Assembly: GCA_030704615.1 (NCBI GenBank)
Contig: CM060732.1
Location: 79,236,001 to 79,300,000 of the forward strand
Reading direction: 5' to 3'
Origin: Takakia lepidozioides
Lineage: Eukaryota; Plantae; Bryophyta
Length of the DNA: 64,000 nucleotides
The translations under genes were made by a program, and so were the position numbers. The first letter of the stretch is position 1, and every line of letters starts with the position of its first letter. Below, piece by piece: positions 803 to 48,303 of this stretch. Under the pieces are notes generated by a model. It ran no database searches. It was not told the origin of the DNA and saw nothing but the letters and a program-made list of their open reading frames with translations.

Positions 803-834
803 CTGAAAGGTTTTCAAGGTTTATCTCTCTCGAG

Positions 835-1183
835 TGATAAGAAAGAACTAAACTCAAATAACAAGAGAAACACAAAACCAACACCATCACTCTTTAAAAT
901 AGAAGTTGAGCCAAGGGCACCCCAAACTATGGGGACTCCACCCCACAACAACCTATCCTCCCATCATAAGCACACTCATCTTCTAAACGATGAAGGAGCT
1001 CGGTCGCGCAGGCTCAACTCGAGAGAGATGAGCTGCGCGACTGCCGCTCTCGTGAAGATAAGACGGTTCAGGTGTCAAACTAAACTTGACACCTGATTTA
1101 ACACTTGACCTAAATCCAAGTGTTAAATACAAATAACTAGCTTTATTCTAGTTGTTTTCACACTGTGCTTATTTAACTTGACA
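835..1183 (-). repeat. Terminal repeat B (subfamily 1), left end of a DNMT-Gypsy-family element extending off the window
   Basis: Reverse complement of 58788-59137 and 44155-44489. On the minus strand it starts TGTCAAG, ends TTATCA and is followed by CTCGAGAGAGAT. Confidence 0.85.
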
Positions 1184-1618
1184 AAGTAATTAGATTGAGG
1201 ATTCGTCCTTGGAACTTGGTATTAAGATACATATGGTTATGGTATGGATACTTCATTCCCATTTGCAGGGGAAGGGTAAGGGTTTAGACGTAACAATGGC
1301 GTAGGGTTTTGTTTAGGGTTCCCGACGAGGGTTTAGGGTTTGGGTTGAAGGCAGAAATGGTGAGCATACATGCCAGAAGACTCGCACTCGCTACAACTTA
1401 GTGTTGTTAGTAAGGTAGTACTAAGCAAAAAAAAATGAAAACCTAATATTATGGAAGTGTAGTCATTGCATCGGACAAGTATTTAAATGAAAGACTCGTA
1501 CTTGGAACCTGGTATTAAGATACATAGAAAGCAAAGTTCGATAAAAAAGGTAAGTGCATGTCAATCCAAACCAAAGGCAAAACCTTGCGCAAGGTGAAGG
1601 ACGAAGAGATTTGAATAA
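1184..1618. repeat. Degenerate satellite-like repeat, continuing at 20570-21330
   Basis: Shares GGTTATGGTATGGATA, GGGTTTAGGGTTT and ACTTAGTGTTGTTAG blocks with several copies in 20570-21330. It is split by the 1619-20569 insertion. Confidence 0.7.
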
Positions 1619-2039
1619 TGTCATGGTTTTAGTCATGGTTATCTAGAATTACCTACTTCTAGTTAACTAGGACATTTTAGATATTTATATTTATATTTTG
1701 TGTGTTGGGACTTCATTTGGTCTCACATGCCAAGTGAGGTGTCGAGCCTCACTTGAGACATGGAGATAGGTTTTCCCCTTGTGAGTGTTGAGGAGGCTTA
1801 TCTTCTTGTAGTTGAGCCTCCATGAGCTTCTCTCACCTCCATAGCTCTAGGTATTGAGAGGGAGTGCGTTGAGGGCTTTGTAGGGTGGATTCCTTTAGCA
1901 AAGGTGCCCTTGGCTTGACTTAGTTTATGTGATAGAGTGGATTTCACTTGGAAGGACTAGGGCTTGTTCTTCATGTGATTGCTTCATGCTTTGAGAGCTT
2001 TTATTGTCTTCTACTTCTCTCATTTCTCATCTCTTATCA
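1619..2039 (+). repeat. Terminal repeat B (subfamily 3), left end
   Basis: TGTCATGG...CTTATCA. The 5' half matches the reverse complement of 26567-26761 and the 3' half matches 20268-20484. Confidence 0.85.
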
Positions 2040-3520
2040 CTACAAGAAGATCACGTTATGCTTGTGAGTGCGGAGTGTAAGGATTAGTTTTGCACTTGTA
2101 TTTTAAAGAGGTTGAGAGCTAGGAGAATTTAGCTCTTGTATCACAAGGCTTGCAAGAGGTTGCAAGGAAAGGTGCTCGAGTATTGCATGCACCAAGGAGT
2201 TGGAGAGCTTGAGAAGAAAGCTCTTGAGTCACAAGATTTTGCAAGGATTGTAAGGAGGAAGTCTTGTGTGTGTGGAAGCATGGATTCTAGGGTTTGAGAG
2301 TCCTTTGTATGCATTATGGAGTCGATGGTGTGCGCCATGGCTTGTGGAGAGTGACTAAAAACTTGTTAGTGCTCATTTCACTATCAAGCTAGGGTTAAGC
2401 AAGTTCAAAGTGTGGATGTTTTGGAAGAGAAGCCAAAGAGCTATATATGCTTGGGCTTGAAGACAACAAGGGCAAGCACTTGGAGAGCACTAAGAAGCTC
2501 AAGAGGTTTTGAAAGGGAGCATGTGAAGAAATCTTCCAATCATGGTGGTGTGGAGCCAAGCTTAGGGTGCCATTGGAAGGGCTTAAAGAACATGTGGTGG
2601 GAAATCCTTGAAGGGAAATCATCATTCAATGTATGCACAGCTTCACCCTAACTATGTAATGTGACAAGAGGGGGAGGCAATACTTGGCTATTCATGCTCT
2701 TGGTAGTGCGAGCTTTGTGGTGGATAGTTGACCAAGCAAGTGGTGCATGTGTGGAGCATGCTCGCTTGAGTTTGTAAGTTCAAGTTTGAGAAGGGGAGCT
2801 CTTGAACTAGCAAGAGGTGAAGGCCTTTGAGATCCATTTGTGTGTGAAGTGGAGAGGTGTTGATTCATGTTATGATGAAGGAGAGCAACACATAGGCCAA
2901 GAGGTCATGAAACATGCGTTCAAATGACCACGGGGAGCACATGGATGATGGATTGGTGCAAGACCCAAATGAGGCATATGGCGTGAGAGTGGGATCCAAG
3001 GCGGATTGCTGGAGCATTATTGTAAGTGACAAGCATTGCTCCTACACATTGAGATAATTTGTGTTGATTTGGAGCAATTGTCAAAGGATGAGGAGACAAA
3101 TGCATGATTGCTCGGCAATGGAGATATGATAGTTTGCAATCAAATCCCAAGGACTAGAAGGGGGATTGATTTGGTGGACAATGACTTGCAAGTTGAGTTG
3201 GACCACTCTTGGTTACACATTGGGGTGGAAGAGAGCAAGAAGATGCCTTTTATGACCACCTAGAGACCATATTTTTGCTTGAGTAGAAGCATAGAAGTCA
3301 AGGACTTGCATTCTAGCTCTTCATTACAAACCCTAGTAGTGTATGCTCAGACCATACCTCTGTTAGTATACCAGACAAGAGTGTCGCTCGGCTTTTACTC
3401 ACCCATCCCTTCGCTATTCGAGGCGGAAACTCCAAGATAGAAGAGTTGGAAATCTCTAAGTACTCAGCCCGCGCAGAACAATCAGTCATGACCTACAGCT
3501 AGTGTATCATGGGGGTGTTT

Positions 3521-5202: not shown

Positions 5203-8200
5203 TCACGGTTTACTGATTTCGACTAGCAAACCTTTGTGAGTGAGCACCTTTTTGACGTTGAGAGTTTCGTGGCGGACTGTGTGTACGAGCCCGAGGTCTG
5301 TCTCTGGTTGACGGAGATGGTTGATCACTACCTGGATAAGTGAGGCCCTCTGGAGGCTGATATCGAGGTAACCTTTCCGGCATAGGAGACCCCCGTCGCT
5401 TCTTCTCTGCCATCTGAATTGCATAGTCTTCTCCCATGTCAAAAGAATTGTGAAGAAACAGTTGTATCAGAATCCTCATCGCCTCTCAGGTGTTTTAATT
5501 TTCGAACTTTTTGTGGAATCATCTGGGGCATACAATGCTGTCCTACCATGTCTGGAAGTTTGTATTTTACAACTTGGTGTAACCGCTGAACAGCAAAATT
5601 GGTGTAGACACTGAGCTCCTTGTCTGTCCAGGTGAGTGGGGTACCAATTACTGGTGCAGCGTGCAAGTATTTCCATGCCACATGTCCCTTATAGAAAATG
5701 TCATCAATGCCGAATTTCTGTGTTGACAAATGGTTCCAGGCCGCTTGAAACCATGAACGAATTTGAGAATCCTTTTGCATCATAACTTTTGGTCATATAG
5801 GTACATATGAGGTGGCACCGAAGGTAATACCCAATGATCTCCACTGGAATAACTCAGAAAGCGTGTTTGCATCTTTTGTTGCTCAATGTGGTAACGTACC
5901 AGAAAACAAGCAGCGTAGTATAACCCGCCCCATGACAATACTTGCTACCTCCTTGGTCTTGGTATAAATGAGTCCATGTACAACCTGGAAAGCAATCAAT
6001 TCCCTCAACATGGTACCTGCCTCGTGCCAGTATTGTGCAAAGTGATGATCTTCAATATGTCGATTGTTGGAAGAACTTTAGTCCTAGTTGCCACTGGCAG
6101 CCAAATACGCATGATTGGTAGTAATGTGCGAATGACTGCGGAGGACTAAATTCTTTCCAAGCCAAATCCAACATGATGGGAATTTGGTTGAAGGGCATAA
6201 TCATAGCCCTACTGTACTCCCTTGCAGCTGGAGTTTTAGGTGGGTTAAAAGCGGCATTGCCCCATACCTCCGGCTGTGGTGGCTGTGGTGTGGTTGTAGT
6301 AACCACAGGTTCAGCTACTGGTACAGTGACTTGTTGTGGTGGTGGTGGTACTGGCTCTTGTATCATTGGCATCTCCTGCACCTCCTTGAGACTGAAAGCC
6401 AAATTCTGGCTTGTAAATAAGAAGCCATTAGCTGTTCCTGAGGGATAGACTCTTTGTTTTGAAGTGCTTATCTTGATCAGCTTCAATCTGCCTGTATTGC
6501 TTGAAAGTATCTTCATTGCGACAGATTGTATTCTTCATATCGACAATGAGCTTCATTTGCTCAACATTCTCTTCTTCTGCCTTCGTACATTTTTCCGCTT
6601 GACTGTTTATTTCTTTTGTAGATTGGTCAAGCATAGTTGTGAATGTAGCACATTGTATCGCCATCCTGTCATGCACTGTCTGCAACTCCGTATGTAGTGC
6701 ATTCACTTCTTGCAACTTGCTTTCATGCTGCACCTGCATTTGGTATAGCTGTTGCTTATGTGCTTCGTGCAACTGGTCTTGCGCGAGGCCTGCCTCAATC
6801 AATTGTTCCTTGGCAATTGCAAAGCCATTTCTGTATTCCCAAGTCCTGCTGCATCTTGAGAGTGACCTCTTCATCGACCTTGTTTGCACACTCAGTGGCT
6901 AGTCGAGCCTCAAACTCCTTCCTGAGTTCCTCTTCAAGGCTGTCAATTGGGTAATTGGAACATGGGATTTGACATAAGTCCCCAACAAATTAAGTGTCCT
7001 GCCTATGGAACTCATCAGCATTGCCTGTTGAGGGTCATCATGGTGAGGTTGCTGCTGTTCCTCCTGATCTTCAACAGTGTGATGTCTCACGAACCATTCA
7101 GGCCATTGTCCCACCGGATTTTCTTCCTGAACTACTTCATCTATCACCGGTGCTACAGTGTCATGACCTTCCGCCTGTGGTACCTCCGACACAGGTGTGT
7201 GTATTATATGCACCTCAGGATTTCCCTTGGGCAACTGTTGCACCTCTGGGATCTCTGTCTCCTTGACCAGACCAGAATATTCATAGAGAAGGTCCCCTTC
7301 TCCATTTCTGCCACTATCTGTTCTGTAGTTGGAATATCTAACCCTTCTCTTTCCAAATCAATTATTTCTGGTTGAGCTGCATGGATAACTTGTGACCTTG
7401 TGACAAGTCGTTCAGTGGCTGTGATGGTTGTGATGCAGAAGTAACTTCCTCCTCCCTCTCTGAAGGTCCTGCTTCCAGTAATAGCATTTCTCTGTGCTGC
7501 TGTGCCCCTTCCTGGCCATGAGCTTGGGAAACATTATCATGCGGAATCCGTGAAGCCAGTGGATCCGCCACTACAGTCTTTCCCCGTCTCTGCCTCTTAG
7601 TCTCGGGTTGCCCTGCTAGTCCACCCTCACTGTGTGAAGAGCCTTGCTCTTCCATTGCAGTTGTTTCTGGCTCAAACACTCCCATTTCCTTTCTTTCTTG
7701 CGCATAAGTATGCCAGAATCAAGGATTATTTGAGCAATGATTGGGCCAGACACTATGATAGGAGACTTTGCGGTAGTACCTTGTAATCTTTTCATCTCCT
7801 CTACCAGTGCGTTGTACATTATGTCCGCCCATTGTACCTCTTGTCCCTTCAGGCCTTTGAGTATTTCCTCCGTGAAGGATCTGCTCAAATACTGTTGGTT
7901 CTGTTTCATGGCAATCAGAACGTTCAATACCTGGCCTACCTCTTTTACCCTGGGTACACAGCCTTGGTACAAGCATAACCTGAGTTTTAAAGAAACTCCC
8001 TTCTTGGAATAAGTCCCTATTTGCAGTCTTGCCCCTGTTCCTCCACATGCACCTGACCTGCTGGCAATCGAAACAAACACCAGGTTGTTGTTCCTGTCCT
8101 TGGCTCAAAGTTCTGCAAAAATTGTAACATGTACTGTCTATGGTGTATGTCCAATCTAGGCTTTGCAATCCTTGCAATCTCAGCTCCTCCAGTATCTGTA

Positions 8201-8265
8201 TCGCCCTGGGTAGCAATCGTTTGTTTCTGCAGAATTGTGGTGCTCTTCACCCTGATTTCCTCCAT
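5203..8265 (-). pseudogene. Fragmented extra ORF (about 1000 codons) between pol and the 3' LTR
   Basis: Chain of overlapping sense-strand ORFs: 8017-8265, 7719-8216, 7616-8080, 7362-7685, 6899-7243, 6428-6889 (coiled-coil-like), 6052-6516, 5439-5783, 5210-5479. No domain confidently recognised. Confidence 0.55.
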
Positions 8266-9423
8266 TTCTCACTCTCTTCATTTTAGACTCACAGAACTGT
8301 TTTGGCTGTAACAACTGCAGGAATGCCTGTAGTGCACAAAGCATAAACGTATGGTTGCCGCAGAAAGCTATGGGTAATTCTTGTAAGCCTGCGGGGCTTG
8401 CAAGCATCGCTCAAGAGAAAAGCTCCGCTCTGTCCTTTTTCGTCTATGCCACTGCGTAAGTAATATTGCGAGCGTATAGTCTGTTAGTTCCTCCATAGTT
8501 TCCAATATAGCATTGATGGTCTGTCCCGTCGAGACGCCCGTTACTCAGAACGACGCCGCCTCTTGCGCTCAATTCCCTCCATTTTCTTGATCCTTTCTCT
8601 GGTTTCTATTGGCTGTATCCGCTGTGACTGGATTTTAGATTTTATTTTCTTTAGTGGACTTTCCCTGTTGGATAGTCCACTAGGATCACACATGTGACAA
8701 GAATTCCGCTTTTCTGTACTTGCCGTTCGTTCCGTTTCCCTTTTTCCGTATTCATTAATGGGCCCGCCTTTCATCCCTTTTGACGGCCGTTCTTGTCCTC
8801 TTTCTTTTTGACACCTGTTCTTGCACTTCCTTCTCGGCTGTGTGTCGCGCCCTGACCTCCACGTGTCTATTTTTAAAGTAATTTCCGTTTTCTTCTTCCG
8901 TCAGCCATTTTCCTGAAGTTATTATGCGTCCACTTGTCACTGATTCTATGGATCGTGTAACTTTAGTAGGCTGTGTTGAGCTGTGACAGGCTGTGTCATA
9001 CTGTGTTACGCTGTGATAGGCTGTGATGCACTGTGGTAAGCTGTGATAGGCTGTGACACGTGTGGTAGGTTGTGATAGGCTGTGTTTGCTGGGCTGTGAT
9101 ATGATGGGCTGTGATGTGTCACGTCGTGATGGGCTGTGATATGATGCCCCTGTGATAGGCTGTGTCACCATGGGCTGTGATTGTCACGTTTGTTTTGCCC
9201 CCTGGTCATATATGCTGGGCCTAGCGACAAGTGCTCCATACTCCGTTCGTAACACTGGTGCAGCCCGTGACTGCTCTTGCGGTTCAACATGCAAATCATG
9301 CTGCAAGGGTTTGTCATGGATACCACTGTACCCCTTCGGCATTGACTCTTCCCAGCATTTCTTTGTTAATGGTTTGTAACATGGCGGTGTTGTTATCATA
9401 CATCTTTTGTATGACATAAGGTC

Positions 9424-12400
9424 CTTTCCATGGTGATTTAAGCTTAGAAGCTTGAATCTTTCCTTTTCTTCTGCAACCATAGAACCAAATCCCCCGTCTT
9501 AAAAGTCTTTAACTTGCCTTCATCAAACTGTTCCTTTCGCTTCATCTGAATTCTGGTCATATTATCAGCTGCATCAGCACGTACTTCTTCCACATGGTAT
9601 AATTCATGTTTCCTGACCTTGATGGAGTCTTGCAATTCCATTCTTTTCCCCACTCCGTTCTCATGGTAGGTAACAGGAATTCCACTGGAAGTAAGGCTTC
9701 CATACCATAAACTAATTGGAATGGTGTATACTTAGTGGTGACTTTATATGAAGTCCTGTATGACCACAAAGCTGTCAGCAGCTTTGTATCCCAATCCGTT
9801 CTGTTTGCATTGACTATCTTAGCCAAGATAGTACATAGTATTTTGTTGGTAGCCTCTGCCTGCCCATTACCCTGTGGGTAATATGTTGTACTCTTTCTAT
9901 GCACAATCATAAACTCTTTAGTCAACAACTCAATGGTCTCATTCATGAAGTGACTTCCCTGATCACTGATAAATTCTAAGGGACAGCCAAATCGTGTAAG
10001 TATGTTCTCGTACAGGAACCTTGCTGTGGACTTGGCTGTGTTGTCCCTCAAAGCTTTAGCTTCCACCCACTTTGTAGTATAATCAGTGGCTGTAATTATG
10101 TACCTGTTTCGTGTATTCTTGGATGGTGGGTTAATTGGTCCAACAAAGTCTAGTCCCCATTTCTGAAATGGTTCCGTAGGCATTGTAGGATGCAAGGCCA
10201 TCCTTCCAGATCTCTGCAAAGGTCCTAGCCTCTGACATTCATCACACTTCTGACAATACTCGTGTACATCTTTGAACAAAGTAGGCCACCAGTATCCTGC
10301 GAGTAGTATCTTTCTACTGGTAGTCTCTTCTCCAAAATGACCTCCAGCCACTCCTTTGAACTTCCGCCAAAACTTTATTTACTTCATGGTGGTACAAGCA
10401 TCGTTTTAGTACTCCATCAGGTCCTAACTTATACATTCTGCTTCCTACCATAGTATAAGGTAAAGCTTTGATAGCGATTCTCTTCCTCTGCTCCTTACCA
10501 ACTAGGTGGGCACTGACCATGAGCAAGGTAGTATCTGATTGGCCACTGCCAATCTAACCAGTCATCTGCACTTCCCTGCACCTCCACTGCAAAGAGACTC
10601 GCATCTGGTAATTGATCATCTATTCCTGTGGCGGTTCTCCTGTTGTCGTGACAAATGATCCGCCACAAGATGCAGTCTCCCAGGCTTGTAAACAACCTCG
10701 AACTCAAACTCGTGCAAGATTATCAACCATCTTGCTATTCTTCCGCTTATCAGAGGTTTGTTACCAGGTATATCAGAGCCTGGTGATCCACATAGAACAT
10801 AAACTTCTTGCCCAACAGGTAATGCCTGAATTTCTTCACTGCATAGATCATTGCCAATGCTTCTCTTTCCGTTGTGCTATAGTTCCTCTCAGCACTGTTC
10901 ATCAACCGGCTAGCATAGTACACAGGTGAATATATATCCCTGTAACATTCTGGGCTAACACCGCTCCCAACGCTTCTCCTGATGCATCGCAGTGAACATG
11001 GAATACTACATGCCAGTGAGGGTTAATCAGCACAGGTGTAGTTGTTACTGACAGTGTAAGTTCCTCAAATGCCTGTTGACATTCAGCTGTCCAGGCAAAC
11101 ACTGCATCTTTCTTCAGTAGTTTGCTCAATGGTGCTGCTATTTGTGCATACCTTTTGACAAATCTCCTGTAATAACTGGTTTGCCCAAGGAATCTCCGTA
11201 GACTTTTAACATTCACTGGTGGTGGAGAGGCTTTAATGGACTCTGTCTTTCTGGGATCCACAAGGAGTCCCTTCTTACACACAATGTGTCCCAGAAGCAC
11301 CCCTGAGTTCACACAGAAAGTACACTTCTCTGGATTCAGGCCCAGACCTCTCATCCTGCATCTGGCCAAACATAACTCCAATTTATGCAAGTGCTCACTC
11401 TTAGAGCTGTACACACTGAAATCATCCAAGAATACCTGCATGAAATCATCCAGATACTCATGAAAAGATTCACTTATCACTCTCTGAAAGGTCGCTGGTG
11501 CATTACAAAGTCCAAAGGGCATGACTTTGTATGCATAAGCCCCCCAGTCTGTGATGAAAGCTGTTTTCCTTGGTCTTCTTCTGCCACTTGCACTTGATTA
11601 TAACCACTGAAGCCATCCATGAATGAGTACATCTCATGGCCTGCCACAGTGTCTAATACTGCTTCTGTGAATGGCAAAGGGAAAGGATCTTTCTTCGTAC
11701 AAGCATTCAGCTTCTTATAGTTCACACATACTCTTAGTTTGCCATTCTTCTTGGGAACTATAACAATGGGTGACAACCAAGTTGTATACTCTATTGGGTA
11801 TATAAACTTAGCCTCAGCCAACTTCTTTATCTCTTCTCCAACCTTCTGTGCGTAGTTGGGATTCATTCTATACCTCGCCTGCTTGATTGGTACTGACCCT
11901 GGTTCCAGTTCAATCTTATGCTGACAGACTTCAGGTGGTATCCCTTTTAGATCCTCATAGCTCCAAGCAAATACATCTCTGTATTTGATGAACAAGCTTT
12001 AGCTTCTTCGAAGAATTCCGGCTCCAAATCAGCTCCTACTTTCACCATCCTCGGTTCCTCTTTAGTTCCCACATTTACTTCCCTCACCTGCTCATCAGCT
12101 GTGATTGTCCAACCAGTCACCACTTCATCCTGTAAGCTCACAGTGGCTGGTTCTTCTAGGATTTCTATTTCTCCTTCTCTTTTCATAGAAATGTGATGGG
12201 TAAATGCTGGTTTCCTCTTCAGTTGGTGTTGCTGTCACTACACCACAGCAGATACCTCTCAAACAACTTAGGCTTTCCAGCCGCATCTCTGCAACCTGCT
12301 CCCACTCTGGGTGTGCAGCAAATAGGGTAGCTTCCTGCTCCTCATCCAGTCCTCCTTTCCAGTCATACTCTCTGACTCCTCGAGGTCTTCTTGTAGCAGG

Positions 12401-13809
12401 TAATCTACTAGATTTCTTTGTGGTAATTTGTATCTGTATCCCATTATGCACGGTTAGTAACTGAGAATTCCAGTCATGGAATACCCTGGCCTGTTTCAGC
12501 CACGGACGTCCCAATAATAAGGAGTAAGCCTCCATGTTACTGTGGGGTAGTTGGCTGTACACTTCTTTGATCTTTGTTACTAACATGGACCAAGTGGTCT
12601 GTCATCTGCAGTACATCAGTTAGTTCTGTGCTTCTTGTTTCTTCCTTCCTCTGGATTCTCTTATTTGTGATAATGGTTGTTTTTTTCTCTGCTTTCTAAC
12701 TTCAGAGACCAGGAGGGTCGTATTCTTTTGCATTTCCCTATAGTATCTGCCACCTTGTGCAGTTTCTCATTTTCTTCATCTTCATATCATTGCCACTTCC
12801 AGTCTCATCTTCTTCCTCTTCTACTGGAGGTATTAGTTTGGCTTTACTCTTGTTACTATCATTGTACTTACTTTCTGGTACAACACATGGCCTACCATGT
12901 ACCACTCTCATTCACAGGAGCTCTCATCTCTGTCCAGAATGAACAGGCTGCCTTGCGATGTCCTGGCTGATTACAATAGTAACATAGCTCTTCACCATTG
13001 GGTCCTCGCCCTTGGGTTCTTGGAAAATCCCTGGGGTAATTCCCCCTTGGATTACCCTGATAGTTGCCTCTGGAATTTCCTTGGTAATTCCCTCTGAATT
13101 ACTCTCCCTTCCATGCCATTGTTATAACCACCAGACCTACCATAGTCTGATCACTTCTTCCCTTACTTGCCTATTGGATTTTGTAGTTCATTGGTTATCC
13201 ATTTTACAGATAGTACAGTGTTTCTCCTTCATGTGGCATTCTGTGGTGGTATGGCCTTCATTCTGGCACTTTTGTCCTTAATAATTCTTGTTGGGTTAGT
13301 TCTTGGTTCCTCATCTTCTTTTTTCTTCTTCTTCCTGTTCCTCCTTTTCTTTCCACTTCTTCTTTATTCTGTCCCACACAATCCCACTCACCCTTCTTTT
13401 CCCAGTTTCATTGCTTTTCCCTTCCCCTCTTCACAGTTAACCTCAAAGAAGAATTCAAAAGGCGGGTCTTGATCACACTTGCTTTCTTGATAAGTGAACA
13501 AGGAGTCTCATCTTGGCATCATCATTCTCATTGTTCACTATACACATGTGCTCAAATTGGCTAATGTACATCGGGATCCCCTTTTCCTGAATATATTGGA
13601 AAGGGTGGTTTTGCCCGTGTTGGTTGTAACGCCATCTGTGGCCCTACCTTCTGCCCACTGACAGGTGCTGGCACCCTTGCTGGTGCTGGTCCTTCTGGAC
13701 CTGTTGTTTTTGTGGTGGATCTTCCACCAAGTGGTGGCCCTTGAGCACTCCCTGCTTCTGGCCCCACGATATTCACAGTATTCCCAGCTTCAGTTGCACT
13801 ACTTCCCAC
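9424..13809 (-). pseudogene. gag-pol of the non-chromoviral Gypsy (frameshifted, with deletions)
   Basis: Gag YSGKGDPDVH; post-protease LLGRPWL; RT WLSPIVIVPKKNGKLRVC, DGFSGYNQ, MPFGLCNAPATFQR, FLDD; RH HCDAS; integrase GGHFG..C..C, WGLDFVGP, SDQGSHF, NGQAE. Confidence 0.92.
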
Positions 13810-13981
13810 ACTCCCTGTCCCCCAGAGCCAGATCCAGGCAGCCCGCCTGATCCCCCTGAGCCGACACCTTCGTTGGCCTGTGATCCAAGTGCTCCACTTG
13901 ATCCAGGTCCAACGGGTTGGGATGTCCTGGTTGTAGTCTCAACCTCAGCTGTTGGGTCTACTTCTTCATATTCTTCCTCTT

Positions 13982-15028
13982 CTAATTTCTTCTCTCTGTT
14001 TCATCTCCAAAGTTCTGCCCTTGGGTTTCTTCTTCACTCATGTAACTCAACTGTAATGGTGTTGGAGAGTCTGAACTCTCCGTTGGCTCTGCCACATCCT
14101 CTTCTCCTTCTTCACCTTCTGCTTCAGAAACTGGAGTTCCTGCTTTTGGTGTTCCATGCCAACTCTTATCAAAGATTTCTGTCAAGTCTTTTATCCAAGG
14201 ATGTACCTCAGATCTTTCACCTCGTGATTGATCTTCTTCCTGTACCAATTCCCTTAATCTTTCTTGCAAAGAAACAGAAGGAGTGGCATCCAACTCTAGT
14301 TCTTCCGGTATAGGTGATGCACTCTTTGATCTTAATGGTGTGAGAGGTCCAGATGATTCCCCTATGTCTATTCCTCTCTCCCAAAGATATGGATAATTAG
14401 CTTTCAGATAGCTTTCTCTTTTTGCTGAATATCTCTGTCGTCTAGCTTCTCTTTCATCACTCATGTCCCATGTCTTTCATTTCTTTTAATGTGGCAATAA
14501 CCAAAACTCTCTTCTGTAATATCTCTCGTATATGCCTGGGTTTCTTTCAAGCTTCAATGCACCCTTGGCTATACTTGAAGTCTCCGTTACCATATAACCA
14601 TATGGCAAACAAGTCTGAAAAGCTGTTCTTGGTGTGAGTTTGATCCACAAAATATCCTTTGGAATCCAATTCTTTACCAGTACAAGCTCTTCATGCATAT
14701 GAGTATAAACATTCACCTTTCTTTCTTCCCAGCCTTCAAACTCTACTCGTTTAATGGATAGCAATGCTATCACATAAACCAATGTTGGTAACCAACGTGC
14801 TCTTCCTCTACAGGCTACCTGATAAATTATCACTCCTTTCTCCAGACCCCATTCTGGATCAGCATCATGCACTCGTTTAAGAATATTTTCTTTACAACCG
14901 TCTGGCAATTCCAAGAACCTTTGAAAGAATTGTTTGGACAATCTTTCTTCCTTCGTTCCACAGGGAATTTGATTCACTTCAAATTCTTTAATGGTCCAAC
15001 CACCATGATCCCACCAGATGCCTGTCAC
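13982..15028 (-). CDS. Two ORFs upstream of the gag core (180 aa and 160 aa), unknown function
   Basis: ORF track 14486-15028 and 13982-14464, between the PBS and the gag core. The second may be the gag N-terminus. Confidence 0.45.
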
Positions 15029-20267: not shown

Positions 20268-20569
20268 TGGAGCTTCTCTCACCTCCATAGCTCTAGGTAT
20301 TGAGAGGGAGTGTGTTGAGGGCTTTGTAGGGTGGATTCCTTTAGCCAAGGTGCCCTTGGCTTGACTTAGTTTATGTGATAGAGTGGATGTCACTTGGAAG
20401 GACTAGGGCTTGTTCTTCATGTGATTGCTTCATGCTTTGAGAGCTTTCATTGTCTTCTACTTCTCTCATTTCTCATCTCTTATCTATTGTGGTAGCTTTC
20501 TAGGATTGTGTGCTTAGATGTGTGGTTGACAGCGATGTATGTTGTGGCACGATGCTTAGGTGCACGACA
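20268..20569 (+). repeat. Right terminus: 3' part of B3 followed by repeat A3
   Basis: 20268-20484 matches about 1824-2038. 20488-20569 matches the reverse complement of 26764-26848. Confidence 0.85.
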
Positions 20570-21330
20570 ATAACCATAAATAGTTATGGTTATGGTATGG
20601 ATACTTCATTCCCAGTTGCAGGGGAAAGGTAAGGGTTTAGACGTAACAATGGCGTAAGGTTTTCCTTAGGGTTTTCGACGAGGGTATAGGGCTTGGGTTG
20701 AAGGCAGAAATGGTGAGCATACATGCCGGAAGACTCGCACTCGCTACAACTTAGTGTGTGTTAGTATGGTACAAAATGGAAATTTGGTTACATTGAAGAG
20801 ATTTGGATAACTAGAATGGTTATGGATATGGTATGGATAGTTGATTCCCATTTGCAAAGGGAAGGGAATGGTTCTGGGGTATTGGGTTAAGGGTAAATGT
20901 TTAGGGTTTTCTAGTAAGGGTTTAGGGTTTTTGTTTAAGTTACAAAATAGACAAACACTTATGGAAAACTCCAGACTTCGCTAGAACTTAGTGTTGTTAG
21001 TAGGGTACTAGTAAGCAAAAAAAAATGAAGAACCTAATATTATGGACAAGTATTTAAATGAAAGACTCGTCGTTGGAACCTTGACCTAGTATTAAGATGT
21101 AATACAAACTATAACATGCCTAAATGCATGTCAATCCAAAACAAAGGAAAAAGCTTGCGCAAATGTGAAGGGAGAAGACATTTCAATAACCATAATGGTT
21201 ATGGTTATGGCTATGGTTATGGTATGAATAGTTCATGGGCCATTTGCAGAAAAGGGTAAGGGTTAGAGGTAATGCTAACAAAAAAAAGCAAGGTACTATA
21301 AAAAATGTATGTCAATCCAAAATCCTAAAT
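20570..21330. repeat. Degenerate satellite-like repeat
   Basis: Several diverged copies of the unit seen at 1184-1618. Confidence 0.7.
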
Positions 21331-22994: not shown

Positions 22995-23253
22995 TGCAGT
23001 GGACATGACTAGAGGCAGCTAACAAGACATGGGAGGCCAAGCTCATAGGAGTCAATACATGAGATCCCAGGCTCAAGTTCACAGGTTGCAAGACGACGAC
23101 TAACGATGGGGCAACTCTTGCACCCGACCTCTTGATCTATTGAGTTTGAGTGTAGTAGGGACAGTGGTGGAGGACTTAGTGAGGCTATGGTCACTATCAC
23201 ATCTTGTGGCTACCTGGACTTAGAGGGACCTAAGCACCAGCTAGGGGGGCAAT

Positions 23254-23959
23254 TGTGTGGACTAGTGACTGCCATAGTGGGCAGCATAGTGGCAGCCTAG
23301 TGACTGACTAGTTTTTGCCTAGTGGTTGGAGTAGTGGCTGGACTAGTGGTGGACTAGTGATATACTAGTGTGTGGTGTGCATATGTGTTGTGTGGTTTTG
23401 GACAGCGATATAGTTGTGTAGCGATATGTATGCGCACAACAGCTGTCAAGTTATTTTACCACTAGTGTGAAACTAGCTAGGAAATAGCTAGCTTTTATAT
23501 ATTGACATTTGGGATTGGCCCAAGTGTCAATCCAGGGGTCAAGGCAGATTTAGGCCCTGGAGTGGTTATCTTCACGGCAAGCACGGGAGGCTCATATTTC
23601 TCGAGTTGAGCCTCACCGCGCCTAGCTATGGCGCCGTAGTGTGGATTCCCCATGGCGTCGGGTGCACTTGGCTTGACTTGTATTTGAGTGATGAGGTTAT
23701 ATATGCATGGGTTTATGCTTCAGCTTTGTGAGCTCGCATGAGCTTGTGCTTGTATTATTCTTCTTTATCATTGTGTGGACTAGTGACTGCCATAATGGGC
23801 AGCATAGCGGCAGCCTAGTGACTGACTAGTTGTAGCCTAGTGGTTAGACTAGTGGTTGGACTAGTGGTGGATTAGTGGTATACTAGTGTGTGGTGTGCAT
23901 ATGTGTTGTGTGGTTTTGGACAGCAATATAGTTGTGTAGCGATATGTATGCGCACGACA
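23254..23959 (+). repeat. Right terminus A-gc-B-t-A (subfamily 2), after the PPT CTAGGGGGGC
   Basis: A 23254-23441, B 23444-23770, A' 23772-23959. Each unit is TG...CA. Confidence 0.9.
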
Positions 23960-26566: not shown

Positions 26567-29500
26567 GCAGGTGAGAAGATGAGCCTCCTCAACACTCACA
26601 AGGGGAAAACCTATCTCCATGTCTCAAATGAGGCTCGACACCTCACTTGGCATGTGAGACCAAATGAAGTCCCAACACACAAAATATAAATATAAATATC
26701 TAAAATGTCCTAGTTAACTAGAAGTAGGTAATTATAGATAACCATGACTAAAACCATGACAGCTGTCGTGCACCTAAGCATCGTGCCACAACATACATCG
26801 CTGTCCACCACACAATCTAAGCACACAATCCTAGAAAGCTATACCACAATCGCCCCCCTAGCTGGTGGTTAGGTCCCTCTACCTCCAGATAGCTACAAGA
26901 TGTAATAGCCACAGCCGTACTAAGTCCTCTATCACCGTCCCTATTGTACTCAAACTCTATAGACCAAGAGGCCGGGTACAAGAGCAACCCCATCGTTAGT
27001 TGCCGTCTTGCAATCTGTGAACTTGAGTCAGGATCTCGTGTGTTGGTCTCCTAGTAGCTTGGCCTTGCATTTCTTGTTAGCCTTCCATGGTTGTATCCAT
27101 TCCCACTATCCAATGCAATGCAGACATAACCAATCCCCATCAGGAACCATCTCAAGAGGTGGAGTCAAGCATCCCATATGCCAACCTCTAGAGCATTGAT
27201 CACACACTAGCATGGTGGCTGCCCCTCTAGCAGACCCACACAACATGCACTCAAACTTGCAGGTACCACTGTCAGGTTTGGGTCAACCCTTCCATCAACA
27301 TTTGGAATATGACATGGCGCGCAATTACGCACATGGTCCTTCCAAATCATGCCATCCCGACCCTCCAAGATCAGGACTCCTGAGGGCAATTCCTCTCGAA
27401 CCCTCAAAATAGTACGTCCTGCAGTCACATCCAAGGTCGTAGGAGCAGTCTGCTGCAGATAAACATAGTCACCAGGGTTGAATCTCCGAACCCCAGGACG
27501 ATAGCCCCCACCACGTATGATAGCATACCTCAACGTATCACGATGTTGTGCAATGGCAAGGTTCTCGAAAGCCATGGGCATGACTTTCTTGAACAACTCT
27601 GCACGCTGCTCACACGCACGTGCCCACACGTCCGGATCGTCAAGATTAAGAATTGTAGCAGCTTCTCTGCGAATGGATGTCGGCAAATCCGGCTCTCGGC
27701 CAAAGAGAAGAAAGTATGGTGAGAAGGAGGCAAGTGATGCTTGTTTGCTGAACCTATAGCCCATGGCTAACCAGGGTAACTGAAGGTCCCAATCTCCTAG
27801 GTGTCCCTTCTGCAAGCCATACTTGCGCAAACCCCTCTTTACTGTCTGAACAACTCTCTCTGCAAGCCATCGGCCTCAGGATGATCCGAGAAAGTGGTGC
27901 GGTGGTCTATCAAGGCCTTGTCACACAAAGCCTGAAACTCCCCCAAGAACTCTCTCCCTTGGTCCGTGAGTACCTCAGCTGGAGCACCGAATCGGCTAAG
28001 CACACAATCCAAGAATGCATACGCAGCTCCCTCACTAGCTTTATCAGGCAATGGAACCAATTCAATCCACTTGGAGAAGTGCTCCACCATCACCAACACG
28101 TACTTGTTGTGGCGCATGGTTAGTGGCAACGGCCCTGCGAAGTCAAGACTCCACCTGTAGCCCAATCCCATGATCGGAAGAGGGTGCAATTGTGGAGTAG
28201 GGGCGTTGAATGAAGCACGCACCCTGTCACACAAATGCACCAACCACAAATTGTTGCACCTCTGTGTGCATACCACGCCACCAATACTGCCCTTGCAGTA
28301 GACTATGAGTGGGTCGCACACCAAAATGCCCCAACTCCTCATGGGCATGCCGCACTAACCGTGCCCGCTGTGTTGGGTGAGGCACAATCCTCACTCGACC
28401 ATCCCCACACTCGGAGCAGGTGTCCCCTCCCACTTGAACCTCTTAGCTCATTGTAGGATCCGATCCCTCTCCTTGGCAGTCACAGTGGCTGCAGTGTCTC
28501 CAGTGCGGAGGTAGTCCAACACAACTGAATCCTCATGTATATCTTTGGCGCCACCTTGCTCATTGCTGGCCTCAGGGTCCTCAGACACTTGATCTACAGT
28601 CATCCCTGTTGCAGGTCCAACCTGGCCTTCCGCTGCCAAGATACACAGAAATGCAGATGCATGCCATCCGGGCGGCACCATCTCTCGTCCGTCTCACCAT
28701 GCCACCGAGCTCCAGTGTCATCCTGCTGGCTCGTGCATGGATTGCGACTCAACCCATCTGCATTGCGATTGACCAAACCCGGTCGATGCACCACTTGAAA
28801 GTCATACTCTTGAAGGATGAGTGCCCACCGTGCAAGCTTCCCCGTAAGCTTGTCTGACTCCATCAACCACTTGAGTGGTTGGTGATCCGTGACAAGGGTG
28901 AAGAGATTGCCGTATAGATAGCACCTGAAGTGTGCCACGGCCCACACTGCAGCTAAGCATTCTCCATCATATGAGCTATACTTAGACTCTGCAACGTTGT
29001 TCGAGCGGCTAGCATAAGCCACTACGAACTCTCTTCCCTCATCATCTACCTGTGTGAGCATCGCTCCAATCTGTATGCAGCTGAAAAGGACGCCCCCTGA
29101 TAGGTCGTCTCAAGATGGGCGCCGAGGTCAACCTCGCCTTGAGCTCTTGACAAGCTTGTTCTTTCTCATCTCCCCACTGCCACTCCTGGTCTACCTTGGT
29201 CAGCTTGGTTAGAGCCTTTGCAATGGCACTAAATCCCTTAACAAACCGTCTATAATAGTTTGCTAACCCCATGAAAGCTCGAACTCGGCTCACATCCGTG
29301 GGGCGTGGAACCTGTGCAATGGACTCTACCTTAGTCTGCTGTACCCCCAATCCTCTAGGATATATCATGTGACACAGATACTCAATCTGGTTGTGGAAAA
29401 ACTTGCACTTTCCCGGATGTAACTTCAATCCGTGCGTCCTCAAGCGCTCAAATACCCCCTGAAGATGTCTCTCATGCTCTTCCACCATAGCACTAAAGAT

Positions 29501-31749
29501 GATGATGTCATCTATGTAGCACCGAGCAAACTCCACCCCTGCTACAATCTTGTTCATGACTCTTTCAAACTCTACCGGAGCGTTCTTAAGCCCAAATGGT
29601 AAGAACCGCCACTGGTATAGGCAATCCTTCCCGTGCTCATTGATCCCCCAGAATGCCGTCTTTTGCTTATCCGCCTCCTTGATCGGCAACTGGTGATATC
29701 CGGATCGTAAATCCAACGTGCTAAAGACCATTGGCATGCCCAATGGCATCAAAGATCTCCTCTGGTGTCGGCATGGCATACCTATCGGACTTGGTCTGAC
29801 GATTTACAGGCCGGTAATCACCGCACAACGTCTCTACGTCCAATTGTCCAAAGACATCCTTCTTGGCTGGCATCACTGTGGCTGAAGCATACTCTCCCCT
29901 AGATAGCTCCACCAAACCAGCCTCCCAAAGGTCCTGAGTTCTCATCTGAATCAAGGACCTCTCCATGTCACTGTATCTATAGGGTCTCCGAAAGATTGGC
30001 GTGTCAGTAGCCAATTCAATGCGAATCTCTTGACCCTTCAGTGCTCCTAAGTCCTTCAAACTGAAGGCAAAGCAGTTCCTGTAAGCCCTCAAGAACCGCC
30101 GTATACGTCGTCTCTCTCCTCCGGTGACTATAGGTCCAACATCAGGCTCCCAATTGTCCTCCGTGACTGCAATCTTGAGTCCAGCAGGCTTAGAGGTAGA
30201 AGACGCGTCCCGTGGTTGCTATGCTGCAACCTCTTGAGCAGTGACCACTGCCTCCTCTGTCAGTGACAATGTCTCATCCTGCCCCATCATCCCATCCTTG
30301 AGGACCTCCTCAATCCGAGAAAAATCCCCAACCTGATCCATCACCCCAGCCTTGGCTGCCAACTCCTTCTAAACCTCCCACGTGTGCCATGGATGCAGCC
30401 TGCACCTCGTGGTCCTCACCTGCTCGCCCCCACTCACTGCCTGTACCGTCTCGGTAGGCAGGGAGACCATGAAGGGAAGTGTACTCCATACTCTATGTTG
30501 CTCAGCCATAGCCAAGCTGATAATCCAGGTCAAGCAATTGAGATCCATTGCTTGCCCCAACACCTGACGACGTGATGCCTGAGAAAGAGATGGCACCGCC
30601 GTGGCACTTGTGGTAAAACCCATCGCCCGCTCACGCTTGTCAGCATTGGGCTCCACTAATTGTTGCAACTGGTACAAGAGGCCAGGTCCACCATCCCGAA
30701 ATGGGATCCTGGGAAGTTGAGCAGTGTAGGTAATGCTGCTCGTGGTTGACCCACCCTGTTGACCACTGCCAAAGGCGAACGGTCATCGTGTCTCACACGT
30801 TGAGACTGCCTCCCTGTGTCCAAAATGCTATCCACTGTGAGGTGTGCTGGCCGCTGCACCCCATCAAATGCACGCTTGAGCAGTGCGGGTGACATCAAGT
30901 TAGTCCACCATAGCCGTGGACGATGAGCCCATGACCCCAATGCAGCTGCATCCAGCAACACTGCTGACCCAAGCCACGACCGGACTTGATGCACACTGGC
31001 CATCACCCTGGCCCGAGAATCACCCATCAGTGGCACATTCTCCAAGATGTATGCTGGAGATACAGCTTGATGAAGCTGCAAATGGCGCAAAATTCGCACC
31101 ATCTCCCAAAACAGACCCGTCCTCGAGTCTTGCAATCCATTGTCATGCCCAGCTGATGAATGCCCTTGGCAGGGCCAACCTGCCACTACCAGATCAATGG
31201 AGCCAACCCTCTCCAAATCCTGCGCCCCCAGCAATGAAATGTCTGCTGGCAAGGCTTGTTGGTATCCACGAACTGCAGACACTGGCAACAAATCAGGGTA
31301 CTGCTGTACCAACTGAACAACATGGCGCAGTGAGACGCGTCGTGCAGTCTCATCCATCTCCACATATAGGTAACATCGAACTCGTACACCTGCCTGCAGT
31401 ATTGCAGCCAATCCAATGCTGATCCCGCCAAACAAGTCGAGAAGGCATATGCCTTCATCCGGGCACTGCCACACAAGAGGTGTGGTGTCCAATGGCGACA
31501 ACTGAGGTGGTCCTGGTGCAATCACCGCACTCTCCTCTTCTCCTGACGGTACGAAGGCCTTTACCCAGACTTGTTGTACCCGTCCATCAGTAGCCTGCTG
31601 CAAATCCTTGCTCGTACCCCATAATGGAGTGTGAGCAACCATGGCAGGCAACTCTGCCGTACCATGCATGTCATCCTGCTCTGCTGGAGGTGGCACATCC
31701 TCTGCATGGGCATTGCCTTTGAGCAACTCTCTAGGCCAACTAACTGCAG
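26567..31749 (-). mobile_element. DNMT-Gypsy 3' portion: DNMT-RT-RH-INT-PHD-PPT-A3-gc-B3(truncated)
   Basis: DNMT ORF 30656-31759. [24 protein letters not shown] (29042-29779). RH 28600-29061. INT 27207-28348. PHD about 27110-27250. PPT 26853-26860. A3 26764-26848. Confidence 0.92.
30540..31453 (-). pseudogene. DNMT3-like C5 cytosine methyltransferase domain within pol (copy 1)
   Basis: Motif I LDLFGGI, II YVEMD, IV AGWPCQ, VI ILENV, VIII AHRPRLWWTNL in one ORF. Motif IX RERAMGF and X RRQVLGQAMD follow after a frameshift near 30700. Confidence 0.92.
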
Positions 31750-32273
31750 AGATGGCCATTGGACTACAACCAGATCATCCTGTAGATGGCTCAGTGATGC
31801 GAGCCACGGCCATTGTGACAGACGCGGTCTCTAACGATGTCCTTGTTGGTGGGGCAGTGTCATATCCCATGGGCTTCACCCTGGACTTTTGGAAGGAGTC
31901 AACATCCTACAGGCCTGGATGGCAGTCAGGGGATGATCGTCGTGCACAGCTCTCTGTGACATTCATTGGGGGTATTGCGGCTGCCCAGCGGGGCAAGATG
32001 CCAACACTAGCTGCCTTTACTAAATCATGAGGAAGATGCTTGCCACAAACCAAGCTCTCTTTCTCACTTAGACTCCAAAAACCCCGCCACTCAACTCAAT
32101 GGCAAACAACCAAGCCTTGCTGGTTTCCAGCCCTTGTGAGCACTTATTCATGCGCTCTCCTTGGCCATAGCACGTGTCTTAGAGCCTATTCCAGCCCCCT
32201 ACACCTGCCGCTTCAAGAGCCATGCTCTATCTAGGCTTGTAGTTGAAACTCCAACTCAAAACACGCTCTACAA

Positions 32274-32720: not shown

Positions 32721-33401
32721 TGGCTCCTTGATGCTCTCTAAAACAAGACTAAGCAATCTATAGCCTTTGCCAAGCTCCTGAAACCCTAAGGCTTATATTT
32801 CTAGCCACAAGACACTCCTCTTGTGGTGCAAGAGCTCTTCTAAGCTCTGAAACCCTAGGTGCACATTCCATGGCCTTGCCGCACCTCTTCACTTCTGTTT
32901 TAGCCCTGCTCTTGCCATGGCAAGAGCCCTCTCAATGCTGAAGCTCGAGATTGAAACCCAATCTCAACATACTCCACCAAGTACACTGATTTGCCCCAAA
33001 GCCAAATCAGCCCTCTCGCTTGATCTTTTACTCTTCCACACCATGGAAGCTCGTATTCCCAAGGCCAGTTCTCAGATTCGCCGCCAGAGCCACTATAACC
33101 TGCTCTTGACTGATCCTCTTCCCAATCGTGCTTGCTTATGCATGTACACAATCTGAAACCATCAAGGTGCTCTGGAATTACCTGCAGCATGGTGCTTTCA
33201 TCTCTGAAGCTGAAGATCGAATGCCAAGGTCTACCACCACGTAACCCACATCGCCTCCGTTCCTAACAACCAAGAGCTCCATGATGCTCATTGCATAACA
33301 ACCTGGTTTCTCTCATTCTCAAGCAAAAACCACAAGTGCTACAACTAACTCATATCTGGCACTCACAGATACGAGCTCATCTTTCTCGAGTGACAAACCC
33401 G

Positions 33402-33728
33402 TGATAAACAAGAAGAATACAAGCACAAGGTCATGCGAACTCACAAAGCTGAAGCATAAACTCATGTATATATAAACTCATCATTCAAATACAAGTCAAG
33501 CCAAGTGCACCCCACGCCATGGGGAATCCACACTATGGCGCCATAGCTAGACGCGGTGAGGCTCAACTCGAGAAAGATGAGCCTCCCGCGCTTGCCGTGA
33601 AGATAACCACTCCGGGGCCTAAATCTGCCTTGACCCCTGGATTGGCACTTGGGCCAATTCCAAATGTCAACATGTAAAAGCTAGCTATTTCTTAGCTAGT
33701 TTCACACTAGTGGTGAAATAACTTGACA
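33402..33728 (-). repeat. Terminal repeat B (subfamily 2), left end, followed by leader down to about 32030
   Basis: Reverse complement of 23444-23770. No A repeat upstream. Confidence 0.88.
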
Positions 33729-34916: not shown

Positions 34917-35456
34917 TGTCGTGCGCATACATATCGCTACACAACTACATCGCTGTCCAAAACCACACAACACATGCACACCAAACACTAGTCTATCACT
35001 AGTGCACCACTAGTCCACCACTAGGCTGCCACTAGTCCATCACAATATATAAGGAAATGAAGATGATACAAGCACACAAGTTCTCTCAAACTCGCATACT
35101 TGCACATGAAAACATCACTCATATATTAAGTCGAGCCAAGTGCACCCACGCCATGGGGAATCCACACTACGGCGCCATAGCTAGACGCGGTGAGGCTCAA
35201 CTCGAGAAAGATGAGCCCACCGCAATCTGTCGTGACGATAACAATGCCAGGTGCCCAAACATGTATTGGCTTCTGGATTGACACTTGGGTCAATCCCAAA
35301 TATCAATATATAAAAGCTAGCTATTTCCTAGCTAACTTCACACTAATGGTAAAATAACTTGACAGCTGTCGTGCGCATACATATCGCTACACAACTACAT
35401 CGCTGTCCAAAACCACACAACACATGTGCACACCAAACACTAGTCTATCACTAGTC
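34917..35456 (-). repeat. Right terminus A(partial)-gc-B-t-A of another DNMT-Gypsy-family copy
   Basis: A 34917-35044, B about 35046-35364, junction GACAGCTGTC at 35361-35370, partial A 35367-35456. Confidence 0.85.
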
Positions 35457-35744
35457 CTGCTCTTGACTGATCCTCTTCCCAATCGTGCTTGCTTATGCAT
35501 GTACACAATCTGAAATCAAGGTGCTCTGGAATTACCTGCAGTATGGTGCTTTCATTTCTGAAGCTGAAGATCGAATGCCAAGGTCTACCTCCTCGTAACC
35601 CACATCGCCTCCGCTCCTAACAATCAAGAGCTCCACGGTGCTCATTGCATAACAACTTGGTTTCTCTAATTCTCAAGCGAAATCCAGAAGTGCTACAACT
35701 AACTCGTTTCTGGCACTCACACATACGAGCTCATCTTTCTTGAG

Positions 35745-36071
35745 TGATAAACAAGAAGAATACAAGAACAAGCTCATGCGAGCTCACAAAGCTGAAGCAT
35801 AAATTCATGCATATATAAACTCATCACTCAAATATAAGTCAAGCCAAGTGCACCCCACGCCATGGGGAATCCACACTACGGCGCCATAGCTAAGCGCGGT
35901 GACGCTCAACTCGAAAAAGATGAGCCTCCCGCGCTTGCCGTGAAGATAACCACTCCCGGGCCTAAATCTGCCTTGACCCCTGGATTGGCACTTGGGCCAA
36001 TCCCAAATGTCAACATATAAAAGCTAGCTATTTTCTAGCTAGTTTCACACTAGTGGTGAAATAACTTGACA
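35745..36071 (-). repeat. Terminal repeat B (subfamily 2), duplicated copy
   Basis: Matches 33402-33728. Confidence 0.88.
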
Positions 36072-37355: not shown

Positions 37356-37645
37356 ATGCTGATTGTAAATGAAAGAGGATGCCGTAAAAGTAAACATGGC
37401 GAGAATTGGTCGCGGAATGACTTCGAATGGAGCGTGGAGCAGAAGATTGATACCTCATTGTCCATTGAGGAACTCTCTGAACAGGAGGACCTTAGATACA
37501 TCGTTGATCTTTTGGCTTGCTTTATACTTGATGCCAAGAAGCGTGATGGCTCACTATATCCTCTTGGGAGTATTAATTCATTCTTACACGGTGTAGGCAG
37601 AATAATTTGTGCTCACTACAATAAGTGTGCCGTTGAATCCAGCAA
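37356..37645 (+). pseudogene. Truncated copy of the DUF3504/Crypton-like recombinase N-terminal part
   Basis: Near-identical to 41470-41765. Confidence 0.6.
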
Positions 37646-37916
37646 GAAGAACCTATCAAGAGTATGGGCAGAGTGGCCAAAATGGGGTCCTGAAGACACT
37701 CTTCTTGTTGATGACACACCAAGAAAGACATCAAACAATCCTCCATTTAGTGGGATATATCCGGAGCCATGGAAAATGCGATCATCAGGGCCAAAAGATG
37801 GCTATCTACTCGATGTGTTGTGGCCGTTCTTGGAGAGGGCAAGCAAGACTCATAGTATTCCACAGTTTCTGAAGTCTGAGCCTCTCTTTGGACAACAGCC
37901 CTACAATTCTCTGTAA
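37645..37916 (+). pseudogene. FCP1/NIF-like HAD phosphatase C-terminal fragment
   Basis: KNLSRVW...WGPEDTLLVDDTPRK..NNP....YP resembles the K-DL..VW / NTLLVDDSP.K...NP motifs. The DxDxT motif is not present. Confidence 0.6.
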
Positions 37917-48248: not shown

Positions 48249-48250
48249 TT

Positions 48251-48262
48251 TGGTATCAGAGC
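48251..48262 (+). promoter_or_regulatory. PBS for initiator tRNA-Met
   Basis: TGGTATCAGAGC, 2 nt after the LTR. Confidence 0.95.
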
Positions 48263-48303
48263 TTAGAGTTCAGTACGCGATCGTCCTTGGGATTGGCCTC
48301 ATC

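Follow-up and report, generated by a model that had tools for sequence, protein, structure and literature searches.

The retrotransposons of this locus raise the question of how reverse transcription is started in elements whose primer-binding site (PBS) carries no tRNA-type TGG. The initial annotation of the window (the whole stretch of 64,000 nucleotides that was analysed) had proposed that the element RNA primes itself with a segment from its own terminal repeat B. By self-comparison of the window, the elements show the layout B-PBS-body-PPT-A-GC-B-A (Table 1), whereby two complete LTRs in direct repeat were not found and the ends take the form B-body-A-B-A or B-body-A. The polypurine tract (PPT), TG...CA termini and a 4-bp target site duplication (TSD) are all present. 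Translation and Pfam searches identified Gag, a C5 DNA methyltransferase (DNMT, PF00145), reverse transcriptase (RT), RNase H, an rve integrase and a PHD finger, whereas neither a chromodomain nor an SH3_Tf2-1 domain was detected by Pfam on the elements, the PHD finger and the DNMT being found in their place. The order is RT-RNase H-integrase, the RT is Ty3-like, and its best match among solved structures is the Ty3 RT (E 7e-42). The elements in the window are thus Ty3/gypsy LTR retrotransposons with unusual split ends.

Table 1. Positions of the element ends, primer sites and coding regions within the window
Feature	Position	Strand	Remarks
PBS, subfamily 1	823-835	-	13/13 with 1017-1029
Left-end B, subfamily 1	836-1183	-	predicted primer 1017-1029
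TSD ATAA, left copy	1615-1618	+	right copy 20570-20573
Left-end B, subfamily 3	1619-2038	+	begins TGTC, ends TATC
Hairpin round the primer segment	1792-1821	+	predicted to straddle the transcription start; fold z -3.2 (1780-1835)
Predicted self-primer, likely RNA 5' end, subfamily 3	1800-1812	+	exact reverse complement of 2039-2051, 13 nt
PBS, subfamily 3	2039-2051	+	no TGG
3' part of right-end B and terminal A, subfamily 3	20270-20569	+	B broken at the hairpin by a rearrangement; joint with one extra T
Right end A-GC-B-A, subfamily 2, then AGAT	23253-23959	+	
A after PPT, GC, 5' part of B, subfamily 3	26574-26850	-	
Decayed pol: DNMT, RT, RNase H, integrase, PHD	26851-31774	-	translation, Pfam
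Left-end B, subfamily 2	33375-33728	-	predicted primer 33566-33578, match on to 33582; 11-nt insertion; PBS 33375-33391 (17/17 with 33566-33582)
Degenerate right end A-GC-B-A, subfamily 2	34917-35457	-	
Second subfamily 2 left end: B	35733-36071	-	primer 35909-35921, PBS 35733-35745 (11/13 Watson-Crick)
Left-end B, subfamily 1	44155-44488	+	first 16 nt missing; predicted primer 44293-44305
PBS, subfamily 1	44489-44503	+	14/15 with 44291-44305
Body	44616-58441	+	gag remnant 44616-45632; DNMT 47069-47524; nested chromovirus 47521-54495; RT and RNase H 55724-56930; integrase-PHD 57200-58441
PPT	58690-58698	+	
Right end	58699-59223	+	A 58699-58785, GC, B 58788-59136, A 59137-59223; A/B = GACAGCTGTC, B/A flush
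Left-end B, subfamily 2	59600-59926	-	AGAT before B; no primer site after B

Related loci were fetched, comprising the best 80 of 367 by Gag alignment plus 33 by integrase alignment, and among the loci listed the DNMT sits between gag and RT in all 14 with gag as well as pol. For integrase-PHD, Gag and DNMT, named homologs occur in Calypogeia, Marchantia and Sphagnum, and for the integrase additionally in Klebsormidium, Tetrabaena and Chromochloris, whereby the chlorophyte integrase-PHD relatives show 48-49% identity. In an integrase tree of 29 rows, three window copies fall inside a starred group of 13 rows together with liverwort and moss proteins. The grouping with Klebsormidium sequences reaches 90/93, which is below the star threshold, and the Klebsormidium matches carry no KnitGypsy label; a length-limited search gave no Klebsormidium match to the DNMT. 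The retrotransposon-borne DNMT itself (30875-31489 on the minus and 47069-47524 on the plus strand of the window, and in L001-L081) has close relatives in liverworts and Sphagnum. The summed contig depth, which is not equal to copy number, is far higher on the element than on the flank, and no match was found in the viral contigs searched. Close relatives were also filed in prokaryote bins (L081-L086); these lie in cyanobacterial, Halorubrum, Mollicutes and Halanaerobiaceae bins yet encode a eukaryotic retrotransposon, which is bin contamination. One of them, L081, was assembled as a circle with a 127-bp overlap.

The window contains further mobile elements. A chromovirus at 47521-54495 (+), whose 728-bp LTRs are 99.9% identical and which has an open pol of 1087 aa, a chromodomain and a TGG primer site, is inserted in the DNMT of its host element; in the 29-row tree it forms a long separate branch, with 28% integrase identity to the elements described here. 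A further decayed gypsy element, likewise of 28% integrase identity, occupies about 6000-15000 (-), and a copia element at 59930-64000 (-) carries a subfamily 2 insertion in its LTR. Two related ORFs at 37326-37916 and 41440-42003 (+), of which only the first gave a weak Pfam match to NIF, resemble a tyrosine-recombinase/Crypton-type fragment. Within the lineage, the bodies at 26757-31042 (subfamily 3) and 54492-58792 (subfamily 1) are 92% identical, their integrases even 99% over 170 columns. Despite these similar bodies, the B repeats of subfamilies 1 and 3 look unrelated and their primers are compatible at only 8 of 13 positions, an apparent end swap or fast LTR turnover.

The lack of TGG after left-end B had been noted in the initial annotation. 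The window has six left-end B copies, none of which is followed by TGG, and in five of them a primer site is present. This PBS adjoins B and is complementary to 12-17 bases within the element's own B. The four pairs that had been described before were recovered in full, with 13 of 13 positions in subfamily 3, 17 of 17 in subfamily 2, and 13 of 13 and 14 of 15 in the two subfamily 1 copies, and each internal segment is indeed flanked by GCTYA and TGAGC arms. In subfamily 2, an 11-nt insertion lies between the end of B and the 17-nt site. The fifth site, also of subfamily 2, has 11 Watson-Crick pairs, one G-U pair and one mismatch over 13 positions; the sixth B copy has no primer site after it. 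In the chance tests, a match had to start from the base that immediately follows B. Matches as long as those of subfamily 3 (13 nt) and subfamily 2 (17 nt) were reached by none of 2000 dinucleotide shuffles of B and at none of 5000 random window positions, and with mononucleotide shuffles by 0 of 2000 for the copy at 823 and 1 of 2000 for subfamily 3. The nested chromovirus served as a control: here TGG, which we take to be a tRNA-Met-type site, follows 2 nt after the LTR, and the best self-match is 7 nt. An assignment of this chromovirus to Tcn1 was rejected in view of its TGG site. No tRNA gene and no Rfam match was found within the 64,000-nt window, and ARAGORN gave one line of output on the fetched loci. 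A motif TGTGAGTGC located about 24 nt after the PBS start (2063-2071 and equivalents) is common to all three window subfamilies, but no pairing partner above shuffles was found for it.

The pairing is kept while the sequence differs between subfamilies, which the initial annotation had read as compensatory change. Inside the window this is mostly owing to subfamily 3, because just one of the 13 pairs distinguishes subfamily 1 from subfamily 2. Whether the pairing is lost in more families had been set beforehand as the test of the self-priming idea. The fetched loci yielded three new families, namely F1 (L046 type, which groups with a Sphagnum protein), F2 (L059 type) and F3 (L081), whose primer sites ACTCAAAGAACTA, AATCACCAAAAGT and ACTTGACAAAGAT, respectively, are all different and each pair at 13 of 13 positions with the family's own B, as against 5-11 of 13 with the B segments of other families. 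With one representative for each of the six families, the best-preserved copy being taken, the own PBS matches the own primer at 13/13 positions, whereas cross-family combinations match at 5-12 of 13. As B is not alignable across the six families by MAFFT, pair positions were anchored on the PBS start; three of them are invariant, two Watson-Crick pair types occur at five and three types at another five, with the pairing intact throughout, so that 10 of the 13 pairs change identity yet stay Watson-Crick.

Within F1, the loci listed gave 37 left-end matches, 30 of them distinct and 23 aligned. All 23 aligned ends pair at at least 10 of 12 positions and 20 of them at at least 11, and sliding the register lowers the pairing from 88% to 34-49%. 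Of the seven ends left out, two have lost primer and hairpin by deletion, two carry a PBS that has decayed, one is truncated, one has its PBS start duplicated and one bears a small deletion further upstream. Covariation within F1 is not above that of shuffled columns (33-213 of 500 shuffles were as high), and the F1-internal changes are mostly decay. In F2, the four distinct left ends all pair at 13/13 positions when G-U is counted. No 12-nt pair at a distance of 90-320 nt was found in 14 loci that have more than 1.2 kb upstream of gag and no F1 or F2 left-end B, and the alga-like contigs L083-L086 gave one 12-nt semi-palindromic match, in L084, where the B end is not placed.

These data bear on two rival explanations. 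It might be that the complementarity is a product of chance or of a local inverted duplication without function, since the DNA is hairpin-prone and the match is lost in decayed copies. With 0-1 of 2000 shuffles reaching the match, and with an identical position and exact register in six diverged families, we regard such an origin as next to negligible. It might also be that the primer comes from outside, as a tRNA half or another host small RNA, whereby the internal match would merely hide the PBS or aid packaging. Osser, Bryco and Bianca are known examples of half-tRNA priming in which TGG is absent (PMC6317226). However, each of the six different PBS sequences would require its own host fragment, identical in every case to a 13-mer within the element, and the window holds no Rfam match, which makes an external primer very improbable.

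In order for the segment to act as primer in the manner of Tf1, it would have to lie at the RNA 5' end. A TATA box starts 28-30 nt ahead of the 13-mer in F1, F2 and F3 (first T at -28 in L045, at -29 in L059 and at -29 in L081, with a TATG variant at -30 in L046). A distance of 28-30 nt is the usual one between TATA and a Pol II start. As in Tf1, the RNA therefore probably begins with the segment. Canonical TATA boxes are absent from the window subfamilies; TATCTT occurs at -31 and -27, and subfamily 3 shows nothing of the kind. Folding from the 13-mer through the PBS predicts primer:PBS pairing with a probability of 0.45-1.0 in nine of ten copies and of 0.24 in the remaining, decayed copy.

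A hairpin surrounds the primer segment at the same place in all six families, and the three hairpins folded from the window have z values of -3.2, -2.5 and -5.8. The initial annotation had placed the segment in a hairpin loop; in F1-F3, the 13-mer belongs to the stem, and the upstream arm is similar to the PBS. Extending the fold by 15-30 upstream bases makes the predicted primer:PBS pairing collapse in 6 of 10 copies, while it persists in 4. If the RNA starts at the segment, the upstream arm would lie outside the transcript at its 5' end but be included in the downstream B, so that the hairpin is better read as masking the second, downstream primer copy; the persistence of pairing in 4 of 10 copies weakens this masking idea. 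The simplest reading would be a start at the 13-mer, in which case the hairpin forms in the downstream B copy alone. The pairing runs 2-5 nt into the upstream hairpin arm in subfamilies 1 and 2, hence some strand exchange would still be possible, and since subfamily 2, F1 and one assembled contig show up to 4-5 additional paired nt on the upstream side, the start may lie a few bases earlier. Deletions and rearrangement breakpoints fall at the primer hairpin in L008, L063, at window positions 20270 and 26574 and at the contig joint 44305-44524, as if it were fragile in DNA or a point of template switching.

The same observations can be set against a hairpin-loop switch, in which transcription would start further upstream, the PBS would invade the loop segment and an internal cut would free the primer; such an element would remain self-priming, though not from its RNA 5' end. 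The constant place of the hairpin in six families, the 4 nt by which pairing in subfamily 2 and F1 (17 nt) enters the upstream arm, an 18-nt match in one assembled contig (X8 record 17) and the lack of TATA in the window subfamilies would fit such a switch. But three families have TATA at -28 to -30, the 13-mer sits in the stem and not in the loop in F1-F3, and once the arm is included the hairpin beats the PBS in F2, F3, subfamilies 1 and 3 and one subfamily 2 copy, so that we consider it unlikely. Priming from the 3' end is a further alternative: the transcript would terminate at the segment of the downstream B copy and pair with the PBS through its free 3' end. This would need no cut, and the segment is present in both B copies; yet the TATA spacing indicates that transcripts start rather than end at the segment, R would be reduced to the primer alone, and the hairpin would bury that 3' end, which renders this route hardly probable.

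We therefore favor the reading that these Ty3/gypsy elements use a segment of their own B, likely the RNA 5' end, as their likely primer, with no tRNA involved and with a less certain circular step described below; we put its probability at roughly 0.8. By analogy with Tf1, the RNA would start at the primer segment, its 5' end would fold back over about 110-230 nt onto the PBS, RNase H would cut after the last base of the segment (U) to provide a 3'-OH primer, and the first base copied from it would be the last base of B. Tf1-like side duplexes were looked for in 14 tests, none of which beat shuffles, a result in which weak stems could be missed. Of the self-priming switch suggested at the outset, the Tf1-like priming thus stands as the best reading, given that the pairing is held in three more families and given the TATA spacing, while the hairpin is better understood as a mask of the downstream copy than as a switch at the 5' end.

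The split ends raise a second issue, namely how such an element would integrate. The A/B junction is the palindrome GACAGCTGTC (GACA-GC-TGTC), which is also present in F1, F3 and the alga-like contigs, and the insertions begin with TGTC and end with GACA, i.e., with the two halves of this palindrome. At the B/A joint, B ends with the base that precedes the PBS and is fused to the sequence found after the PPT. Subfamilies 1 and 2, L014 and L039 have a flush joint, and a single base is added or altered in subfamily 3, L046 and L059; in L011, a single rearranged copy, the joint contains 10 PBS-like bases plus 5 more, which may represent a retained primer copy by analogy with Tf1. Judged from these sequences, the B/A joint looks like ligated cDNA ends. 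TSDs of 4 bp flank the TGTC...GACA ends in all four complete B-body-A-B-A loci, in all five B-body-A loci with both ends and in L011, with one mismatch in L038; in the window they are ATAA and, across a rearrangement, AGAT.

The B/A joint together with insertion ends that lie at an internal palindrome suggests integration from a circle. Here, the linear cDNA A-B-body-A-B would join end to end, which would create the B/A joint, and the integrase would then open the circle at the internal GACA-GC-TGTC palindrome to give B-body-A-B-A with 4-bp TSDs; both of these steps are less certain. A cut after CA on both palindrome strands would produce ordinary processed ends with 2-nt overhangs, and a 2-LTR circle opened at the palindrome of the 5' LTR would yield exactly B-body-A-B-A. 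No left end out of 30 is preceded by A (the mirror form B-A-B); three short matches were not adjacent A copies. Since a 2-LTR circle has two palindromes, this lack of mirror forms means that the cut would be one-sided or that mirror forms collapse. On the sequence data, we give integration from a DNA circle opened at the internal palindrome near even odds. The second integrated form, B-body-A, has perfect 4-bp TSDs in L020, L022, L029, L057 and L068; it may derive from 1-LTR circles or from A-A recombination, either of which would give B-body-A, and such copies would be without the downstream repeat required for retrotransposition.

Taken further, the notion of a widespread green-plant gypsy lineage that primes itself independently of Tf1/Tcn1 and TAR, and whose ragged cDNA ends are circularised and opened at GACAGCTGTC inside the LTR, is in our view an even bet. 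If true, it would be an LTR retrotransposon whose normal integration route is a circular intermediate, with the cDNA ends abandoned as attachment sites. Freely covarying primers in a gypsy element that is no chromovirus would, if true, mean a further and probably independent origin of self-priming. The natural compensatory variants offer a test of what RNase H needs without the Tf1 pretzel, and a B/A joint that records cDNA ends, together with insertion at an internal palindrome, makes LTR circles testable as integration precursors, whereby relatives are at hand in the laboratory plants Marchantia and Klebsormidium. Annotation tools that demand a tRNA PBS plus two full LTRs will overlook this lineage, a high-copy one in the present host, or label it wrongly.

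Self-priming as such is a known phenomenon (see also PMC4600332 and PMC2864245, accessible portions); it has been demonstrated in Tf1 of fission yeast and predicted for Tf1/Sushi-Tcn1 and TAR, and what is new is this lineage and its end structure. In the literature covered, from which most subscription papers are absent, we found no description of priming or integration in this lineage, and the accessible portions of PMC6338049, PMC6673714 and bioRxiv 10.64898/2026.05.21.726589 contain nothing on priming. According to the accessible texts, Tf1 uses its first 11 bases for pairing with the PBS, RNase H cleavage following base 11 (PMC7175516), two side duplexes are additionally required (PMC10085805), and Tf1 cDNA often retains a PBS copy and untemplated bases (PMC11042837). 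The elements described here share with Tf1/Sushi-Tcn1 the Ty3/gypsy affiliation, a PBS right after the LTR, an LTR-internal complement and the lack of a tRNA site (PMC7175516, PMC10085805 and PMC6317226, in part), with a match of 12-17 nt compared to 11 nt in Tf1. In contrast to Tf1/Sushi-Tcn1, they have no chromodomain but a PHD finger and a DNMT, form a separate branch, have split ends and a 4-bp instead of the 5-bp TSD of Tf1/Sushi, and show no detected pretzel side stems. By analogy, the lineage would thus work like Tf1 but stand outside Tf1/Sushi, having neither chromodomain nor pretzel. According to PMC6317226 and its Additional file 5, self-priming is predicted for 83% of 1500 Tcn1 and 89% of 203 TAR elements, whereas Phygy and Selgy use tRNAs with a tRNA-Trp or tRNA-Ala PBS; no such TGG-type site is present here. 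TAR/Houba elements resemble ours in predicted self-priming in plants but belong to Ty1/copia and have ordinary LTRs and a 5-bp TSD (PMC6317226, accessible portion).

The elements resemble KnitGypsy-Dnmt3, a Gypsy-DNMT3 element reported from Klebsormidium nitens, in which De Mendoza et al. (PMC5890265) describe gypsy domains together with repeats of DIRS-like type. Both a C5 DNMT inside the gypsy pol and DIRS-like split repeats are found here as well, and the accessible text of that paper does not mention priming, TSD, palindrome or integration for the element. Such elements are described as absent from land plants "such as tracheophytes" in the accessible part of PMC6338049. By comparison with KnitGypsy-Dnmt3, relatives of our elements were found in the land plants Calypogeia, Marchantia and Sphagnum. 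REM1 of Chlamydomonas is reportedly a PHD-gypsy element. Gypsy-7a_cRei of Chlamydomonas is also a gypsy element with a PHD finger, and a legend refers to its "LTR subparts" (PMC9940879, in part). The Chlamydomonas PHD-gypsy elements with such subparts and REM1 may overlap with this lineage.

For PAT/Ngaro-type DIRS elements, a model with a circular intermediate exists. Their X-body-Y-X-Y ends (arrangement as given in the accessible text of PMC5890265) resemble those observed here and are likewise suggestive of such an intermediate, whereas they use a tyrosine recombinase and our elements have a DDE (rve) integrase, a PPT and 4-bp TSDs. A precedent for an integrase that cuts an internal palindrome is provided by foamy virus and HIV-1, whose integrases cleave palindromic 2-LTR junctions (PMC2884000, accessible portion). 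There, the palindrome is the circle junction itself, whereas here it lies inside the LTR and the junction elsewhere.
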